This document shows positions 3,686 through 22,460 of a stretch of DNA of 28,047 bases, piece by piece. The translations under genes were made by a program, and so were the position numbers. This stretch comes from Roseibacillus sp. (GTDB lineage: Bacteria > Verrucomicrobiota > Verrucomicrobiia > Verrucomicrobiales > Akkermansiaceae), in NCBI GenBank assembly GCA_965242925.1, contig CBDEUM010000020.1, positions 1 through 28,047 on the forward strand, in the 5' to 3' direction. How positions within the stretch are numbered: position 1 is the first letter of the stretch; each line of letters opens with the position of its first letter. The notes under the pieces were generated by a model. It was given only the letters and a program-made list of their open reading frames with translations, ran no database searches and was not told where the DNA came from.

Positions 3686-4071
3686 CCCCTACCACTCACG
3701 CCTCTCAACCCACGGGACAGTCCGCTCGCACCAGACTTCCTCTGATCCTGATTACAAACCTCTGTGTAGCTGTCTTCCTCCTCCTTGCAGTCCCCGTGAT
3801 TCACAAGGGCCAGCAGGGCTTCATCCTGCACGCAGCGGCCAACAACGACTACGTCGAAGCCGTAATCGGAAGCGGCGAGGCAGACTTCATGCAAAACGCA
3901 CTTCGCACCACCGAGAACGCCCGTGCAATGGCATACGATGATCACGTTGCCACCATGGCCGTCATGCAATTGACCGTCGCTTTCCTCGCCTTCCTGTTCT
4001 TTTTTAACAGTCTTTACCTCTTTCGCCTTCACCGTCGATCGCAACAGATCCCGATCGTTCCCGGGAGTTGA
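3682..4071 (+). CDS. Hypothetical membrane protein with two predicted TM helices
   Basis: ATGA overlap with the rsmI stop; two hydrophobic segments (LILITNLCVAVFLLLAVPVI; VMQLTVAFLAFLFFFNSLYLF); ends TGA-TGA. Confidence 0.65.
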   Translation: MTPTTHASQPTGQSARTRLPLILITNLCVAVFLLLAVPVIHKGQQGFILHAAANNDYVEAVIGSGEADFMQNALRTTENARAMAYDDHVATMAVMQLTVAFLAFLFFFNSLYLFRLHRRSQQIPIVPGS

Positions 4072-4357
4072 TGACACCAACTACGGCGCCCTGGGCCCGA
4101 TCTGCAGGAGGGGCAGATCACCAATGATCCCAGAGCGCAACCTCCCACAATGCGCGGGAAACTCCTGTCAGGAAAATAACTCTGACAGAAGGCCCCGATC
4201 CTCGGCCAGAATGTTCGACTCCGGATTGAAATCCGGGCTCGGTCTCCTACGAAAGTCCACGCATCCGGAGTCACCCCAATCACGCAATATCCTTGAAACT
4301 TTGGTAGCGGAAATCTGCCGAAATCCTCTAATATCCCCCTAGACGATCCCTCTCCAC

Positions 4358-5335
4358 ATGCTTGCGTTTTCCACCTGCTGGAACAATTCCCGCCACTCGG
4401 ACGGCGAGGCCATGATCGAGGAAATCCTCTCATTAGGCGTCAATCACATTGAGCTCAGTCATGGAATGACGATCGCCAAACTTCCGGGAATCCGCCGGGC
4501 ATTCGAAGGCGACTCCTTCCACTGCTGTGGCGTCCACAATTACTTCCCTTCCCCAACGGAGGTAATAATCGATGCTCCCGACGCCTACGAGTTCACCTCT
4601 CATCGTCCCCATGATCGCACCCGTGCACTGGAGATGACTTTCCGGTCGCTCGAATTCGCGGCGGAATTCAAGGCCCGCTACATGGTCCTTCACATGGGTT
4701 CGGTGCCTCTCATGCCGCACCACAAATGGACTGGCCGACTCACTCAGATGCTCAAGGAAGGCCGGCAACTCGACCCGAAATACGACAAACTCAAATTGAA
4801 GTGCGTCAAGAAGCGCAGCAAGACCGGCGGTCTTTACTTCGCTCGCGCCCTTGAGACCCTTGAAAAACTTGTTGAAAAAGCCGCCGAGTATCAGGTGAAA
4901 CTCGCCATCGAATCCCGCTCCAGATACGAGGATGTTCCTGCAGAAGAGGAAATGGTGGCGCTACAGCAGCACTTTTCGGATAACGAATGGATTGGTTACT
5001 GGCACGACTTCGGTCACGTTCAACTCAAGCATAACCTGGGATTACTTGAACATGATCAGTGGCTGGGCGAGATGGAGCCCTACCTGATCGGCGCTCACGT
5101 GCACGATGTGGTCTGGCCTCATCGCGACCATCGGGTCCCCTTCACCGGCACACTTGATTACGATGTTCTGCTCAAGCACTTCCAACCTGAATTGCCCCAT
5201 GTGTGGGAACTCTCGCCCCGTCGCAAGGAGGAAGAAATCCGACTGGCACTCGAGTGCTGGAGGGAAAAGTTTCCGGACACCGTGACGAAAATCGGAACGA
5301 CGCCCCTCCAGGAACTCCCGGCGACCCCCTCCTGA
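4358..5335 (+). CDS. Sugar phosphate isomerase/epimerase family (AP endonuclease 2-like TIM barrel)
   Basis: Metal-binding pattern: IELS, VHNY, VLHMG, LAIE, WHDFGH, HVHD and DHRVPFTG. Confidence 0.85.
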   Translation: MLAFSTCWNNSRHSDGEAMIEEILSLGVNHIELSHGMTIAKLPGIRRAFEGDSFHCCGVHNYFPSPTEVIIDAPDAYEFTSHRPHDRTRALEMTFRSLEFAAEFKARYMVLHMGSVPLMPHHKWTGRLTQMLKEGRQLDPKYDKLKLKCVKKRSKTGGLYFARALETLEKLVEKAAEYQVKLAIESRSRYEDVPAEEEMVALQQHFSDNEWIGYWHDFGHVQLKHNLGLLEHDQWLGEMEPYLIGAHVHDVVWPHRDHRVPFTGTLDYDVLLKHFQPELPHVWELSPRRKEEEIRLALECWREKFPDTVTKIGTTPLQELPATPS

Positions 5336-9071: not shown

Positions 9072-10256
9072 TCATTGCGGGAATAACCGTGGCGTTTTAT
9101 CCCCATCCGGAAGGGACTCGAACGCTGCTCGCAGGGGGATGTCCCGGGATTGTCTCTGAACAGGGTTGTAGCGCGGATAGATCCCCTCAAATACTCCTCG
9201 TAAGGACAAGGGTCCGGGATTTGATTCACTGTAGGTGAGAACGACTTCGAGTTCACCACCGTAGGTAAAGTCGCCTGGACCCTCGTCGGTCAGGCGCACC
9301 TTCCCGCGGAGCAGAGCATAGCGCATTTTTCCATCTGAACCCGCTGGTTTTATTGTCAGGTCGCCCTCGATTCTGTCGATCTGGTAGACCTTTTTGGTTT
9401 GCTGACTCGTGCGCTCCATTACTCCCGGCGGGTAGACCTGGGAGAGCCATTTTGTCAGAGCAGCAGCTTCTACCCTGCGCTTTTTGTGCGGATAATTAAG
9501 CGTCTTCCAGTCTTTTTTGTTGAGCGCAACAACCTCAACAACCGGCGCGCGGTAGGCGATCATGCGTTCTTCCAGCAGGCGCACGAAAATACGAATACCT
9601 GACTGTTCCAGATCCGGTAGTTTTAAGGGATGCTCTGCGGTTGGTGCGTGGGAAAGGTCCAGAGCAGGGATCGCCTGCTTTAGTCCTCTAACGGTATAGT
9701 CCCCGAGGGATTCGTGCTTTTGTCCTTGTCCTCCATCCGGGACCCGCCGGGGCCCCATCCGGCGAAAAGCGTCAAACCAGTGTACCAGGTTGCCTTCCGA
9801 GTCGAGAATGGCCAGATCCACGTTGCTTTGCTTTCCACCGAAACCCCGTCCCCTGAATTTCCTCTGCCAGACCTCTCTTACCGGGTCAGGAATATTCGGG
9901 TCATTGCGATGCCCGTGCCAGGAAGCAGCAATGAAAGGTCGCAACATGCGAACCACCTTCGGGTCTATGAGCGAGGCCCCCCGGACCTGCGTGGCGGTCG
10001 CTCAGCAGTGCCCGGAGGAGAGATCCCCGTATTGGGCATGGATGATCACCAGAAATACAGGGCGCTTTTCGCGAAGCGCCCTTTTCTGAGCCTCCTGCAG
10101 CGAGGAGGCCCAGTCGATCTGGTACATGGCAAGATCGTCTTTTCCGGGACGAAAGGCCTTGTAACGATCAAGAACGGCTCCTACTTCCGGGACTTGGGCC
10201 GGAGCGATGGCCACAGGCATCAATAATAATGCAAACACAATGCAGAGGCCTCTCAT
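9072..10256 (-). CDS. Candidate secreted selenoprotein with a thioredoxin-like fold and Cys-Sec motif (GHCU), SelN-like; 394 aa with TGA at codon 85 read as Sec
   Basis: ORFs 10002-10547 and 9072-9956 are in the same frame, separated only by TGA at 10004-10002. Read-through gives ...DWASSLQEAQKRALREKRPVFLVIIHAQYGDLSSGHC-U-ATATQVRGASLIDPKVVRMLRPFIAASW..., a continuous Trx-like pattern. Signal peptide MRGLCIVFALLLMPVAIAPA starts at ATG 10256, and a hairpin lies directly 3' of the TGA. Confidence 0.8.
9968..10004 (-). promoter_or_regulatory. Putative bacterial SECIS hairpin of the SelN-like gene
   Basis: Minus strand TGAGCGA-CCGCCACGCAGGTCCGGGGGGCC-TCGCTCA: a perfect 7-bp inverted repeat that includes the UGA. 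The inner segment can form a bulged stem with a CAGGUC loop, or alternatively AGGUCC/GGGCCU. Folded by eye. Confidence 0.6.
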
Positions 10257-10440
10257 GGCGTATTTGTCCATTCGTTCCGGGCGCGCAAGATGTCGTCCTA
10301 CAACCCTGTGCCTATTCCCTGAATAATTGAATAGAGCACCCAACTTCACCCTCGCAACGGAGAGCCTGGCCAGAGTCCCGCAGATACCGGGGCAGGCAGG
10401 CTGGCAATAATCCCTGCTGGGACTCATCCCCTGAAGCGTT

Positions 10441-13400
10441 CTACGGCGCCGCCGCGATAACTCTGACGTCATCAATGGATAATCCACTGAAAGAATCCAC
10501 GCTACCGTCACTGACGAAGTTCCATTCCACGAGAATCGTCTCTCCAAGAGCCCCGGCCGCGACGGGAATGGTGATGGTGAGATAGTCCGTGTCGAACACG
10601 CTCATGTCGATGGCGACATCCACTCCAAGCTGCACGTTGTCGACAGCACGAAGGAAACGCACCACCGCTGTGTCCCCGAAGCCATCCGCATCCCGGAAAG
10701 CGGCGAAGGAAAGCTCCGCGCCACTCACTCCAGTCAGGTCGATTGCAGGAGAACGAAGGGAGATATCAGAGTCGGAGAAATAGTCACCTAGGCCGGTGCA
10801 CCAGGCATTGGCAGATCCATCGGCCCCTTCGATCGGACCGGTGGAGCCATTAGGTGTCCCAAACTCCCACTGCGTATTCCCGTTGGCATCGTTCACCACC
10901 GTGGTCCACCCCCCCGTCCCTGACTCGAGATCGTCAAAGAAAAGAGGGGGAGCATTCTTCTCCCGGATTGCAACGAATCCCTTGCCCGGGAATGGCAGGG
11001 CGATGTCCAGCGTATTGGTGCCTGAGAGATCCGCGGGAATATTCTGCGCGTCCGCCAGACCGTCCCATGACTCCCTTGGCGAGGAAAGGTCCGCGTTGAT
11101 CAGAACGTCATAGACCTTCCCCGGCGTACTCGCCCAGGTGAGACGAAGCATGGTGGAGTCGAGCGGAGAATGGTCGACAGCCAGCTTGAGTTCGTCCCCG
11201 CCACTCCCGGAGGACACCTCAATCGAAAAGCCATAGGTCCGGGGAAGGTTGGCATGCCCGAAGCTGTCGAGGGTGTTTCCGATTACACCCGCCTCGTCAA
11301 CGTTGCCGCTGTTGGCATGGTCGGTAATACCGAAGCTGGTGTTGGTAATAATGCTGTTGGTCACTCCGAGAGCGTTGGTATTCTGAATTCCCGCCGCCAC
11401 TGTCGCTCCACCTTCCGGAATAGTGAAGACCGCCTCTTCCCCTCCGAAGGGAACCGCCCACTGAATGCCCGGTTCGGTGTCAATCGTCTCACCCACTGCC
11501 ACCACTGTGTGATTGGCAGGACCGTTCATAATGGTGAGGAAAGGAAAGACCGGCTGCGTAACACCGGCCATACCAGAGTCCGGAGCCGCATTGTAATTCC
11601 AGCTCCTGGCCTGGTAGGTCCCGGCCTCCAGAAACACCGTATCGGTGATATTGATGTTCTGCCGCATTTGGTTGTTACCGTTGGACTGGGTGTCCGTAAC
11701 CCCGGTCAGTTCCGGTCCGTAACCAATTGTGATGTAGCCGGGGCTGTTCGGGTCATTCGGATTGCTGCCCGATGCCACTTCGTCACCGTCCGGACGTCCG
11801 TCGCCGTCACTATCCGGATTCAGAGGATCCGTGCCGAGGGTGTCCTCCATCCCGTCAGAGAGGCCGTCATCGTCGCTGTCCGGATTGCCCGGATCGGTTC
11901 CGTTTGCAATCTCATCCGGGTCACTGATGCCATCATCATCGGAATCAGCCTCGGTGGGGTTGGTCCCGGCATTGTATTCCTCCAGGTCGGTGAGCCCGTC
12001 GTCATCGAAGTCGCCGGGGCCGAGCTGGCTCAGGTCCCCGGGGAAGTACTGCTCCTCGTAGCCGTCGGGGATGCTGTCGCCGTCACTGTCGATATTGGGA
12101 TCGAAGCTGTCGAGGTAGGCCCCCCAGCTCTGGCCGGCGCCGTCGGCGTCAAAGACCGCGGGAGCTCCGCTGCTGATTCCGAAGGCGCCGGCATAGCCGA
12201 TGCCGCCGAAGTCGGCGGTGTTGGAGGAGTTGCCATTGAAGTAGCCAAATCCGATGTCAGCGGCGGACTGGGCGCCGCCCCCGTCCTCGCTGAGCCAGAT
12301 ATCAACGTTGAACCAGCCGCCCCCGCCGAAATTGAAGTTGGCAAAAGTGCGGGCGTTCCAGCTCACATCGGTGTGCTGGGCGGACGCGCCGGTGGCATTC
12401 AGGTTACCGGAGCCGCCGATCGGGGTGGCTACGATCTTGACGCGATCGTCGTAGTTCTCGGTGAAGGAGAAAGTGCCGTCAGCATCATAGAACTGGAAGA
12501 TGAAGGCGAGGTCGTGGTTGTCCCCGGTGAGGTCGATGCCCCCGTTGCCCGGTTCCCGGTCCACATCAAGGGCGGAGATGAGACTGGAGTCGGGGTCGTC
12601 CGGATCCCCGAAGGGGGCGGCCTGATCGGCATTTTCGGGCAACGCCCCGGTGAAATCCGCTCCGGGCAGATTGTCGGTGCGGCGGTAGAGAATCCTTTCC
12701 GGATTGTGGGATGCCAGATCGATCTCCGGACGGGAATTGGGATCGGTGGGATCGAATCCGCCTGCAACCTCGATCCCGTCAGGGATCAAATCGTCGTCAC
12801 TGTCGGGGTCCAGGGGATCGGTGCCGGTGTTGTTGGCGTCAACGAATACACCGGTGCCAGTTTCCACTCCGTCAAGCAGGCCGTCGCCGTCGCTGTCAGG
12901 GTTGCCCGGTTCTGTGCCACCGGCGACTTCCGATCCATCGTTCACACCGTCTCCATCACTATCAGGGTCTTGTGGGTCAGTATCGCGCTCGAACTCCTCC
13001 GCATTGTTCAACCCGTCACTGTCGGGATCTCCGAGGGCTCCGTTAGGCCCGTCCCCGGCACCCGGAGCACTCTCTCCCGCTGTCCCGTCATCGTTATCGT
13101 CCAGGCCATTACCATCTTCCCAGTTGGCGGGAAGGCCGTCCCCGTCCTCGTCGGCCACAACCGCATCCTCCACCTCAATCGCGAAAGCGTAGGTGCGGGG
13201 AAGGTTGGCGTGGCCGAAGCTGTCGAGGGTGTTTCCGACTCCGCCCGCCTCGTCAAAGTTGCCGCTGTTGGCGTGGTCGGTAATACCGAAACTCGTATCG
13301 GTAAGGATGCTGTTCTGGACGCCGGTGGCATTGGTGTTCTGGACACCTGCCGCCACTGTCGCTCCCCCTATTGGAATAGTGAAGGTGTCGTCCGCCCCTC

Positions 13401-13755
13401 CAAAGGGCACCTCGGTCTGCACGCCGGGCTCCGTATCAATGGTATCACCGAAGGCCAGGACCGTGTGATTGGCCGGGCCATTGACGATCGTGAGAAAGGG
13501 GAAGACCGGTTGCGTCACACCCTGTGTAGCCGAGTCCGGAGCCGCATTGTATTCCCAGCTCGCGGCACGGTAGGTCCCCTCCGGAAGGAAGACCGTATCG
13601 GTGATGTTGATGTTCTGGCGCATCTGGTTGTTACCGTTGGACTGGGTGTCCTGGACGCCGTTGAGCGCGGTTCCGAAGCCTATCTTGATCGCGCCCGCGT
13701 CGCTCACTAGTGCGACGACGAGACAGGTGGTGAGGAGGGATTGTTTCTTAGACAT
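10441..13755 (-). CDS. Large secreted surface/adhesin-like protein (1104 aa): signal peptide, unknown domain copy 1, DxDxDG Ca-binding (bacterial TSP3-like) repeats, PA14-like domain, more repeats, unknown domain copy 2, C-terminal beta-rich domains
   Basis: Signal peptide MSKKQSLLTTCLVVALVSDAGA; many DSDxDG..D..E...GTDP repeats; internally repeated domain; C-terminal FFDDLESG..GW...W..G.P...SL.SP.IDL...GL.IDDV pattern seen in secreted proteins. Confidence 0.88.
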   Translation of the reverse strand: MSKKQSLLTTCLVVALVSDAGAIKIGFGTALNGVQDTQSNGNNQMRQNINITDTVFLPEGTYRAASWEYNAAPDSATQGVTQPVFPFLTIVNGPANHTVLAFGDTIDTEPGVQTEVPFGGADDTFTIPIGGATVAAGVQNTNATGVQNSILTDTSFGITDHANSGNFDEAGGVGNTLDSFGHANLPRTYAFAIEVEDAVVADEDGDGLPANWEDGNGLDDNDDGTAGESAPGAGDGPNGALGDPDSDGLNNAEEFERDTDPQDPDSDGDGVNDGSEVAGGTEPGNPDSDGDGLLDGVETGTGVFVDANNTGTDPLDPDSDDDLIPDGIEVAGGFDPTDPNSRPEIDLASHNPERILYRRTDNLPGADFTGALPENADQAAPFGDPDDPDSSLISALDVDREPGNGGIDLTGDNHDLAFIFQFYDADGTFSFTENYDDRVKIVATPIGGSGNLNATGASAQHTDVSWNARTFANFNFGGGGWFNVDIWLSEDGGGAQSAADIGFGYFNGNSSNTADFGGIGYAGAFGISSGAPAVFDADGAGQSWGAYLDSFDPNIDSDGDSIPDGYEEQYFPGDLSQLGPGDFDDDGLTDLEEYNAGTNPTEADSDDDGISDPDEIANGTDPGNPDSDDDGLSDGMEDTLGTDPLNPDSDGDGRPDGDEVASGSNPNDPNSPGYITIGYGPELTGVTDTQSNGNNQMRQNINITDTVFLEAGTYQARSWNYNAAPDSGMAGVTQPVFPFLTIMNGPANHTVVAVGETIDTEPGIQWAVPFGGEEAVFTIPEGGATVAAGIQNTNALGVTNSIITNTSFGITDHANSGNVDEAGVIGNTLDSFGHANLPRTYGFSIEVSSGSGGDELKLAVDHSPLDSTMLRLTWASTPGKVYDVLINADLSSPRESWDGLADAQNIPADLSGTNTLDIALPFPGKGFVAIREKNAPPLFFDDLESGTGGWTTVVNDANGNTQWEFGTPNGSTGPIEGADGSANAWCTGLGDYFSDSDISLRSPAIDLTGVSGAELSFAAFRDADGFGDTAVVRFLRAVDNVQLGVDVAIDMSVFDTDYLTITIPVAAGALGETILVEWNFVSDGSVDSFSGLSIDDVRVIAAAP
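11212..11735 (-). repeat. Second copy of the repeated domain in the large protein
   Basis: ITIGYGPELTGVTDTQSNGNNQMRQNINITDTV...FGHANLPRTYGFSIEV; boundaries approximate. Confidence 0.9.
13165..13690 (-). repeat. Copy of the ~170-aa repeated domain (N-terminal copy in the large protein)
   Basis: IKIGFGTALNGVQDTQSNGNNQMRQNINITDTV...FGHANLPRTYAFAIEV matches copies at ~11212-11735 and ~13960-14477; boundaries approximate. Confidence 0.9.
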
Positions 13756-21130: not shown

Positions 21131-21191
21131 ACGACCCCGGATTCAGTTGCCAGGAGTCCTCCACTGATAACGGAAAAACGACAACTCATTC

Positions 21192-22460
21192 ATGAATACG
21201 ATCGTTAACGGGCTCCAATGGGGTGACGAAGGCAAAGGCAAGATTGTTGACTACCTGACAGAGAGTGCCGACTTCGTTGTCCGCGGCCAGGGCGGCAACA
21301 ATGCCGGACACACCGTCATTGTCGGCGAGAACAAATACATCCTCCACCTTGTCCCTTCCGGCATTCTCTGGCCCGGCAAACAGAATGTGATTGGTAATGG
21401 GGTGGTCCTCGATCCCCTCGGCCTGATACAGGAGATCGCTACCCTGGAAGGTCAGGGTGTCACCATCAGTCCGGACAACCTCCTCATCTCCGACCGGGCC
21501 CATGTCGTCCTGCCTTATCACTGCGATCTTGATGCCGCCCAGGAACAGGCCCGGGGCAAGTTCGCGATCGGAACCACCCGTCGCGGGATCGGTCCAGCCT
21601 ACTCCGACAAGGCGACCCGCAATGGCCTCCGCCTCGCCGATCTCCTCGATCCCGAGATGGCTCGTGAACTCGTCTCCGTGCGCCTGGAGGATGCCAATCA
21701 GTTCCTCGGCCTGCACAATATGGATTCGCACGACCCGGCGGCGATCCTGACAGCGGTGGAAGGCGCGCTGGAGCGCCTGCGTCCACATGTCACCAACACC
21801 ATTCCAATCCTTCACCAGGCCTGGAAGACGGGCCAAAACATCGTCTTCGAGGGTGCACAGGGAACATTCCTCGACGTCGACTTCGGCACCTATCCCTTCG
21901 TTACTTCCTCCAACACCACTTCGGGCGGGGCCTGCACCGGAAGCGGCCTCCCGCCTGTGGCTATCGACCGGGTGGTCGGGGTGTGCAAGGCCTATACAAC
22001 CCGGGTGGGCGAAGGCGCCCATATCACCGAGAACCAGGAATTTTCCGATTACCTCCACGGGCTGGGCCGTGAGTTCGGAGCCACTACCGGACGCAAGCGC
22101 CGTTGCGGCTGGTTGGACTGCGTTCTCCTGCGGTTCGCCTGCATGGTGAATGGAGTCACCGACCTCGCCGTCACCAACCTGGACGGACTGGACGAACGGG
22201 AGGAGATCAGGGTCTGCACGGCTTACGATCTCGACGGTATTGAGCACTCCTATCCGCCGGCGCAACGCGACGCCTGGGAGCGGGCCAAGCCGATCTACGA
22301 ATCCCATCCCGGCTGGATGTCTGACACATCCGGTTGCCGGAGCTGGGAGGACCTCCCCGGGAACGCCCGGAATTACCTGGACCGCCTATCCGAGTTGGCT
22401 GGCGCGCCAGTCAGGTATGTCGGCATCGGACCGGACCGGGAACAGACCATTCTCCTCTAG
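21192..22460 (+). CDS. purA: Adenylosuccinate synthetase
   Basis: QWGDEGKGKIVD, QGGNNAGHT, IGTT.RGIGPAY.DK, EGAQG..LD.DFGTYPFVTSS, KAYTTRVG.G and EFGATTGR.RRCGWLD motifs. Confidence 0.98.
   Translation: MNTIVNGLQWGDEGKGKIVDYLTESADFVVRGQGGNNAGHTVIVGENKYILHLVPSGILWPGKQNVIGNGVVLDPLGLIQEIATLEGQGVTISPDNLLISDRAHVVLPYHCDLDAAQEQARGKFAIGTTRRGIGPAYSDKATRNGLRLADLLDPEMARELVSVRLEDANQFLGLHNMDSHDPAAILTAVEGALERLRPHVTNTIPILHQAWKTGQNIVFEGAQGTFLDVDFGTYPFVTSSNTTSGGACTGSGLPPVAIDRVVGVCKAYTTRVGEGAHITENQEFSDYLHGLGREFGATTGRKRRCGWLDCVLLRFACMVNGVTDLAVTNLDGLDEREEIRVCTAYDLDGIEHSYPPAQRDAWERAKPIYESHPGWMSDTSGCRSWEDLPGNARNYLDRLSELAGAPVRYVGIGPDREQTILL

Follow-up and report, generated by a model that had tools for sequence, protein, structure and literature searches.

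Does a TGA codon that interrupts a reading frame in a verrucomicrobial genome mark a stop, a sequence error, or a selenocysteine (Sec) residue? We addressed this question for a gene on contig CBDEUM010000020.1 of Roseibacillus sp. (assembly GCA_965242925.1; 42 contigs, 89.9% complete), within a stretch of 28,047 nucleotides (contig positions 1 to 28,047; referred to here as the window). The gene lies on the minus strand, with its ATG at 10256 and its final TGA at 9072-9074. Positions 9075-10256 form a single frame whose sole interruption is the codon pair TGC-TGA at 10002-10007, and translation through this one internal TGA gives a product of 394 residues. Under translation table 11, the same frame appears as two open reading frames (ORFs), 10002..10547(-) and 9072..9956(-). 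A preliminary description, made from the letters of the window alone, had noticed that two same-frame ORFs are joined by one TGA right after a cysteine codon, and the coordinates and translation agree with it. Judged from sequence, the gene model and the reading of the internal TGA as Sec are almost certainly correct, and the protein is a real, uncatalogued, Sec-only selenoprotein with a thioredoxin fold and predicted export.

Conservation of the Cys-TGA pair

The locus was scanned in one genome per species with two seed patterns, one of them the explicit Cys-Cys form GHCCATAT, and 50 loci were returned. A cysteine codon followed by TGA was found in 48 of these, within an invariant G-H-C-U-A motif and with protein homology on both flanks, a recurrence that is far beyond chance. 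In the remaining two, the contig ends before the site (L077) or the gene is degraded (L073). The preliminary description had expected homologs to carry either TGA or Cys here, with homology across the site; neither Cys nor any residue other than Sec was found at this position among the 50 loci, despite the use of GHCCATAT as a seed. Across 45 species, the amino acids to either side of the TGA were conserved and their synonymous codons varied freely. The degraded locus, from a Kuenenia metagenome-assembled genome (MAG; positions 4001-4779), has lost ~60 residues including the Cys-Sec loop, and its C-terminal part lies in another frame.

The loci came from Verrucomicrobiota, Planctomycetota, and Kiritimatiellia, with carriers in Roseibacillus (86% identity), other Verrucomicrobiales, Mariniblastus, Blastopirellula, Pirellulales, Brocadiia, and Kiritimatiellia. 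The only record from outside the Planctomycetes-Verrucomicrobia-Chlamydiae group (L049) is a 4.2-kb contig of very low coverage binned as Gammaproteobacteria, an assignment that may reflect faulty binning and not gene transfer. A six-frame search reading through stops recovered the full-length protein, again with a single TGA in the equivalent place, in five further genomes of the genus. When a sample of 401 genomes of the phylum, this one included, was searched, TGA-containing matches occurred in this genome only; the other 22 matching genomes gave weak (≤ ~31 bits), stop-free, thioredoxin-like matches.

Protein databases hold the gene in pieces. A protein collection clustered at 90% contained 175 relatives, and the 120 listed all cover at most 74% of the query (length, 224 to 346). 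These are downstream pieces, called "hypothetical protein" where they are named, from Verrucomicrobiota, Planctomycetota, Akkermansiaceae, and Pirellulaceae MAGs. The proposal of a hidden selenoprotein split by gene callers is borne out in that none of these 120 proteins spans more of the read-through product.

The stretch is present in 20 public sequencing runs from 14 studies, all of them marine, and six of the runs are RNA libraries. A sequencing error at the TGA had been named at the outset as a way for the Sec reading to fail; contigs from all four runs examined, of which two were metatranscriptomes and two were DNA runs made in other studies, bridge 10002-10004 with no difference. One DNA strain has a synonymous TGC>TGT change adjoining the intact TGA. 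RNA libraries may contain DNA, and the metatranscriptome contigs are therefore taken to show presence, not translation.

Selenocysteine machinery

A tRNA-Sec with anticodon TCA was found in the genome, together with selB (287.5 bits; cutoff, 242) and selD (366.6 bits; L011, G000:C14:573853-574776, plus strand). The selD gene has an in-frame TGA of its own, in the motif C-A-G-U-A-S-K. Among the sel genes on which the preliminary description would have its proposal depend, tRNA-Sec (selC), selB, and selD are present, and selA is the part that did not turn up, as weighed below.

Candidate RNA signal downstream of the UGA

Synonymous codon use was examined in a codon alignment of 45 homologs, from which three truncated or broken loci (L051, L064, and L075) and a near-duplicate of the window (L028) were excluded. 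Among 106 conserved codons, only Q90 (synonymous entropy, 0.0; CAG in 44/44) and G93 (0.13; GGG in 43/45) were frozen, and R92 was almost exclusively CGG or CGT; the remaining conserved codons had relative synonymous entropies of 0.44 to 1.0. Synonymous choice was thus frozen only 15 to 26 nucleotides (nt) after the TGA. The frozen bases correspond to a candidate hairpin, AGGUCC-G(G/U)G-GGACCU, with a stem that starts 13 nt past the UGA and a loop ~20 to 22 nt past it. This 6-bp helix is paired in 91.8% of cells of the alignment, 39 of 47 distinct sequences can form at least five of the six pairs, and the hairpin is part of the minimum-energy fold in 19 of the 47. Thr>Ala and Thr>Ile changes turn U-A and G-C pairs into wobble pairs. 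The members of a divergent clade (L063, L065, L068-L070, and L072) have a different sequence at the place of the hairpin. A third hairpin register was tried and rejected, being 72.3% paired and having no covariation.

The 9-mer CGCAGGUCC is common to this gene, where it lies 10 nt past the UGA, and to the selD of the same genome, where it lies 28 nt past the UGA; by a rough estimate, the chance of a 9-mer being shared between two 40-nt windows is ~0.3%. The Escherichia coli fdhF element presumably also contains GCAGGUC. As a finder of Sec genes, CAGGTCC after an open-frame TGA was not useful: in a scan of the entire genome, it accounted for 80 of 1,234 occurrences, compared with 31 to 109 for eight control 7-mers, and there was no enrichment.

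Predicted export and domain structure

An AlphaFold2 model built with 42 sequences had a mean predicted local distance difference test (pLDDT) score of 88.3 and a predicted template modeling (pTM) score of 0.86. Read by eye, the N termini of the window protein and of 41 orthologs have a basic start, a hydrophobic run, and A-x-A/AQ, the Sec-type pattern that the preliminary description had seen in the upstream ORF. Residues 1 to 20 look like a Sec-type export signal peptide, with cleavage probably after A-P-A.

Residues ~38 to 203 are modeled as a thioredoxin fold of the DsbH/DsbD-gamma/AGR type that is continuous across the Sec site, and ERp19 was among the Foldseek matches to the model. The domain profile aligned to the DUF255 structure 3ira (E = 5.6e-5) with Sec85 on the first Cys of C-H-W-C, and in the model Sec85 directly precedes helix 86-95, the classic position of the nucleophile. 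Both the model and the profile alignment therefore place Sec at the first CxxC cysteine, which agrees with the suggestion that the frame is interrupted where a thioredoxin-like fold has its redox site. There is no CxxC or UxxC motif; the position +3 after Sec is Ala, and the partner Cys is at -1. Since Cys84 is the sole Cys of the mature protein, the vicinal Cys-Sec pair is the only possible intramolecular redox couple.

Residues ~218 to 384 are predicted to form long antiparallel strands (pLDDT, 91.5 when modeled alone). This C-terminal domain had no structural match above the aligner's stated background; the unrecognized domain noted earlier at this end thus holds up, as a beta-rich unit of ~170 residues. 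Searches of Pfam (0 families at E ≤ 1), NCBIfam (June 2026 release), and PDB sequences gave no match for the read-through protein. Scores against Thioredoxin_7 were below its gathering cutoff of 27, at 13.7 to 14.4 bits for the orthologs and 18 bits for a paralog (L026).

Relation to known families

Domains of the Thioredoxin_7, Thioredox_DsbH (DUF255), DsbD-gamma, AGR2-AGR3-ERp19, and UAS type show a weak sequence relation to the protein (the 3ira match above), and many of them act outside the cytoplasm. Unlike them, the protein described here lacks CxxC; its active-site loop is long, and a beta domain is added at its C terminus.

The preliminary description had compared the Cys-Sec motif with the active site of eukaryotic selenoprotein N (SELENON). 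In passages of PMC12839072 and PMC10298544, SELENON is presented as a reductase of the endoplasmic reticulum lumen with an SCUG motif, which one passage of the former likens to the GCUG of thioredoxin reductase. The two proteins are alike in having Sec right after Cys in a thioredoxin-like region and in belonging to an oxidizing compartment outside the cytosol (in our case, by prediction). Paralogs, though not the gene studied here, carry R-C-U-G followed by L-R at +6/+7, which fits the pattern given in that description. The two proteins differ in that the motif here is H-C-U-A (G-H-C-U-A-T) rather than SCUG; that ahead of its fold the bacterial protein has just a putative signal peptide and one helix, with no type II anchor, and Pfam finds no EF-hand in it; that a domain of ~170 residues follows the fold; and that the candidate Sec signal is of the bacterial kind, within the coding sequence. 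No solved SELENON chain was found among the PDB-sequence, structural, or profile matches, and a search for longer named relatives yielded no selenoprotein N, its 20 proteins being unnamed or "hypothetical." With the resemblance at the level of the motif only, we consider it doubtful that the Cys-Sec domain of this superfamily is a true homolog of the SELENON catalytic domain and possibly its source.

Among curated selenoprotein families, VPGUxxT (NF041382/NF041383; "OS_HP5") alone gave any signal, and this was seen only for two paralogs (L019 and L020; E = 2.7e-4 and 0.011), at ~15 to 20 bits as against a cutoff of 350. Neither model had a match in the Roseibacillus genome at E ≤ 0.001. VPGUxxT proteins share an exported thioredoxin-like N-terminal domain, Sec at the first CxxC position, and a similar length. 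However, their motif is VPG-U/C-x-x-C/T, with no preceding Cys, and their Cys relatives (VPGCxxC) have a C-terminal half that looks MsrA-like (CFWxGE-type motif, by eye). Mammalian thioredoxin reductase also has a vicinal Cys-Sec pair, GCUG, which forms an eight-membered selenenylsulfide ring. There, the pair is on the flexible C-terminal tail of a flavoenzyme, whereas here it is placed at the N terminus of a helix in a thioredoxin fold, and there is no flavin domain.

No entry with a matching motif and architecture is found in the table of 119 prokaryotic selenoprotein families in a 2026 review (PMC13188914, Table 1). Supplements aside, literature searches on SelN-like, UAS-domain, VPGUxxT, and periplasmic selenenylsulfide proteins turned up no description of the family, and the deep-Sep paper (PMC12013277) contained none of the six terms sought in it. 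The suspicion that the family is undescribed therefore stands insofar as it lies outside Pfam, NCBIfam, and that table.

A wider superfamily

Distant paralogs also have a signal peptide, the same order of domains, and a TGA in the corresponding alignment column. The motifs around it are R-C-U-G-G, G-C-U-A-A, R-C-U-G-F, C-T-U-N-N, and R-T-U-G-A-C, and an alignment of 20 sequences shows Sec and an Arg at +7 to be invariant. The same genome encodes another superfamily member (L101, G000:C9:2245-2733, plus strand; E = 2.9e-34 to the domain profile), with the motif L-G-C-T-U-N-N-G. Its frame seems broken ~270 residues in, and it may be frameshifted or a pseudogene.

The domain profile was also searched against 1.84 billion representative sequences, which gave 1,761 matches at E ≤ 1e-3, and the best 150 of the 1,761 were examined. 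Within these 150, 67 stop precisely at the Cys that precedes Sec, 20 have their start just past Sec, and 61 span the site. Cys occupies the Sec position in 31 of 64 site-spanning superfamily stretches, in 11 of them as Cys-Cys; other pairs at the site include Thr-Cys (7), Cys-Gly (7), and Ser-Cys (6), plus more. We read 16 sequences from the best 150, and in several of them an extracytoplasmic function (ECF) sigma factor, FecR, or a Ser/Thr kinase is fused to the two-domain module; no eukaryote-like protein was recognized among the 16. In P0127, P0128, P0139, P0169, and P0178, the module forms the outer part of the fusion and has Gly, Ser, or Cys in place of Sec. These fusions suggest that Planctomycetes possess a family of periplasmic sensor domains.

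Proposed mechanism and alternative explanations

The explanation that best accounts for the whole locus, and that we consider probable, is an exported selenoprotein of 394 residues acting as an oxidoreductase that cycles a vicinal Cys84-Sec85 selenenylsulfide. For the vicinal selenenylsulfide redox mechanism taken by itself, our confidence is lower, though we lean toward it. Under this explanation, SelB and tRNA-Sec would read the UGA at codon 85 as selenocysteine, aided by the short hairpin that starts 13 nt downstream. The mature protein, periplasmic or secreted, would consist of the thioredoxin-fold domain and the beta-rich domain of ~170 residues. Sec85, standing in place of the attacking Cys of a CxxC motif, would attack an oxidized substrate (a disulfide, a sulfenate, or similar), Cys84 would resolve the adduct to give a vicinal selenenylsulfide, and a separate reductant would reopen the eight-membered ring. 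Chemistry of this kind is attributed to the GCUG center of mammalian thioredoxin reductase and to the SCUG motif of selenoprotein N. Substrate binding would most likely fall to the C-terminal domain. The coding unit, the conserved UGA, the Sec machinery, the fold, and the place of Sec are shown by the analysis; we infer the export, the vicinal redox cycle, its direction as a reductase, and the role of the C-terminal domain.

Several observations weigh against this explanation. The selA gene was not found in the 89.9% complete assembly with TIGR00474 or PF03841. Of 19 other genomes of the genus, 18 have it (475 to 504 bits), the exception being a 70% complete assembly, and we read its absence as a missing piece of assembly, yet it remains a gap. 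No Cys ortholog was found that would prove that a thiol could do the same job. The hairpin is backed by conservation, with little compensatory change, and a rival pairing, which has AGGUCC in its loop, holds the only covarying pair (12 double changes, a number reached in 0 of 500 shuffles). RNAalifold, run on 49 sequences, gave an uninformative consensus in which neither pairing was recovered; the window's own sequence has an ordinary fold energy (z = -0.41); and there was no match to an Rfam family of selenocysteine insertion sequences (SECIS). The flanks of 41 loci contain no conserved neighboring reductase, DsbD/CcdA-like gene, or other partner.

A further point of this kind is that the invariant residues His73, His83, His114, and His116 could equally serve metal binding. 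An exported selenoprotein whose Cys-Sec pair and histidines bind a soft metal or metalloid (Hg, Cu, As, or Se) for trafficking or detoxification is the alternative to which we give the most weight, although we regard it as unlikely. The four histidines are invariant or nearly so around C84-U85 in the ortholog family, among the CU-motif families of PMC13188914 (Table 1), several consist of metal or organometal proteins (SaoL, HgcA, MbdU, and a form from the CopZ family), and a MerC gene adjoins one locus (L048). However, that locus is the only one with MerC among the 41 whose flanks were scanned, the histidines are not retained in the paralogous CU subfamilies, and Sec is at the catalytic position of a thioredoxin fold. 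The fusions described above raise a different possibility, that of a noncatalytic binding or sensor module: the same two-domain unit follows a membrane segment in sigma-70-type, FecR, and protein kinase fusions, and in many of these the residue in the place of Sec is Gly, Leu, Ser, Asn, or Asp. We find this very improbable for the protein studied here, which is free-standing and has a predicted signal peptide. Moreover, a costly Sec codon is kept in all 48 loci that hold the site and is never replaced, which argues for chemistry there.

That the TGA is a true stop, leaving either a pseudogene or two genes for an 84-residue peptide and a protein of 291 to 294 residues, agrees with the table-11 gene calls, which yield exactly those pieces. 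Yet the 15 codons from the TGA to the first possible restart (ATATQVRGASLIDPK) are in frame and encode the best conserved part of the protein, the modeled fold runs on across the site, residues are conserved amid free synonymous change on both sides in 45 species, and the TGA itself is invariant; we therefore hold this explanation to be extremely unlikely. Least credible of all, with nothing found in its favor, is an assembly or sequencing error, or a different genetic code in which TGA stands for Trp or Gly. The TGA is bridged without change by independent runs, it is found in 48 assemblies, and the genome has a tRNA-Sec with anticodon TCA. In addition, TGA is the terminal codon of the gene, which means that TGA also works as a stop in the same gene.

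Implications of a Cys-Sec protein with predicted export

Thioredoxin-fold selenoproteins are already known. What is unusual in the oxidoreductase proposed here is that the partner of Sec is the preceding residue, inside a thioredoxin active site; the predicted export and the unrecognized C-terminal domain are further unusual traits. As no Cys ortholog appeared in any search, selenium may be truly required for the function. The gene occurs widely in seawater data. Because current annotation leaves two "hypothetical proteins" in its place, the selenoproteins of marine Verrucomicrobiota and Planctomycetota are undercounted. Its superfamily also appears to supply the outer sensor module of sigma factor and kinase fusions in Planctomycetes. 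Were the doubtful link to SELENON true, a bacterial, exported, Sec-only protein could become a tractable system in which to study a human disease protein whose chemistry is poorly understood, and the vicinal Cys-Sec pair in a thioredoxin fold would be an ancient device for reduction in oxidizing compartments.

Sequence features and gene neighborhood

Table 1. Features of the selenoprotein gene, in window coordinates
Feature	Position	Strand	Evidence
Complete coding sequence of the 394-residue selenoprotein	9075..10256	-	Translation; homology across the TGA in 48/50 loci; amino acid conservation with free synonymous change on both sides
Terminal stop codon TGA	9072..9074	-	Orthologs stop at the aligned place, with varied stop codons and unrelated sequence beyond
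Putative signal peptide, residues 1-20 (MRGLCIVFALLLMPVAIAPA)	10197..10256	-	Read by eye; ortholog pattern; low model pLDDT
Cys84 codon TGC (only Cys of the mature protein)	10005..10007	-	TGC or TGT in all 48 site-holding loci; TGT in one independent strain
Sec85 codon, in-frame TGA	10002..10004	-	Conserved; aligned with first Cys of CxxC in PDB 3ira; N terminus of helix 86-95
Candidate bacterial SECIS (bSECIS) apical hairpin, AGGUCC-GGG-GGGCCU	9974..9988	-	Pairing and frozen codons
Predicted thioredoxin-fold domain, residues ~38-203, active-site loop Y-G-D-L-S-S-G-H-C-U	9648..10145	-	
Predicted C-terminal beta-rich domain, residues ~218-384, conserved motifs YPPGVMERT, LTDEG, and G.YPR	9105..9605	-	

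The window is ordinary chromosome, with proC, ilvB/ilvN, carA, purA, uppS, upp, and a sigma-54 activator (for the coordinates of the selenoprotein gene, see Table 1). The selenoprotein gene is flanked by a convergent ilvN and, upstream on the same strand, by a gene for a 1,104-residue TSP3-repeat protein, an arrangement that recurs in the genus. The TSP3-repeat protein (10441-13755, minus strand) is secreted, is the same neighbor in the two closest genomes, and apparently contains two copies of a module starting ...SNGNNQMRQNINITDTVFL....

Pfam was run on 81 of 139 flanking ORFs from 41 loci, plus two sulfatase ORFs, and across the flanks of these 41 loci there was no shared partner gene. In 13 of 49 loci, sulfatase genes occur no more than ~4 kb away, in many cases in the same orientation as the selenoprotein gene (L030-L035, L047, L054, L056, L059, L060, L062, and L075). 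Because these phyla hold very many sulfatases, this proximity is only a weak lead and may be due to chance in sulfatase-rich genomes. Elsewhere in the window, a 373-codon frame with no family match (21186-22307, minus strand) runs antisense to the adenylosuccinate synthetase gene (21192-22460, plus strand) and is probably a shadow ORF of GC-rich DNA.

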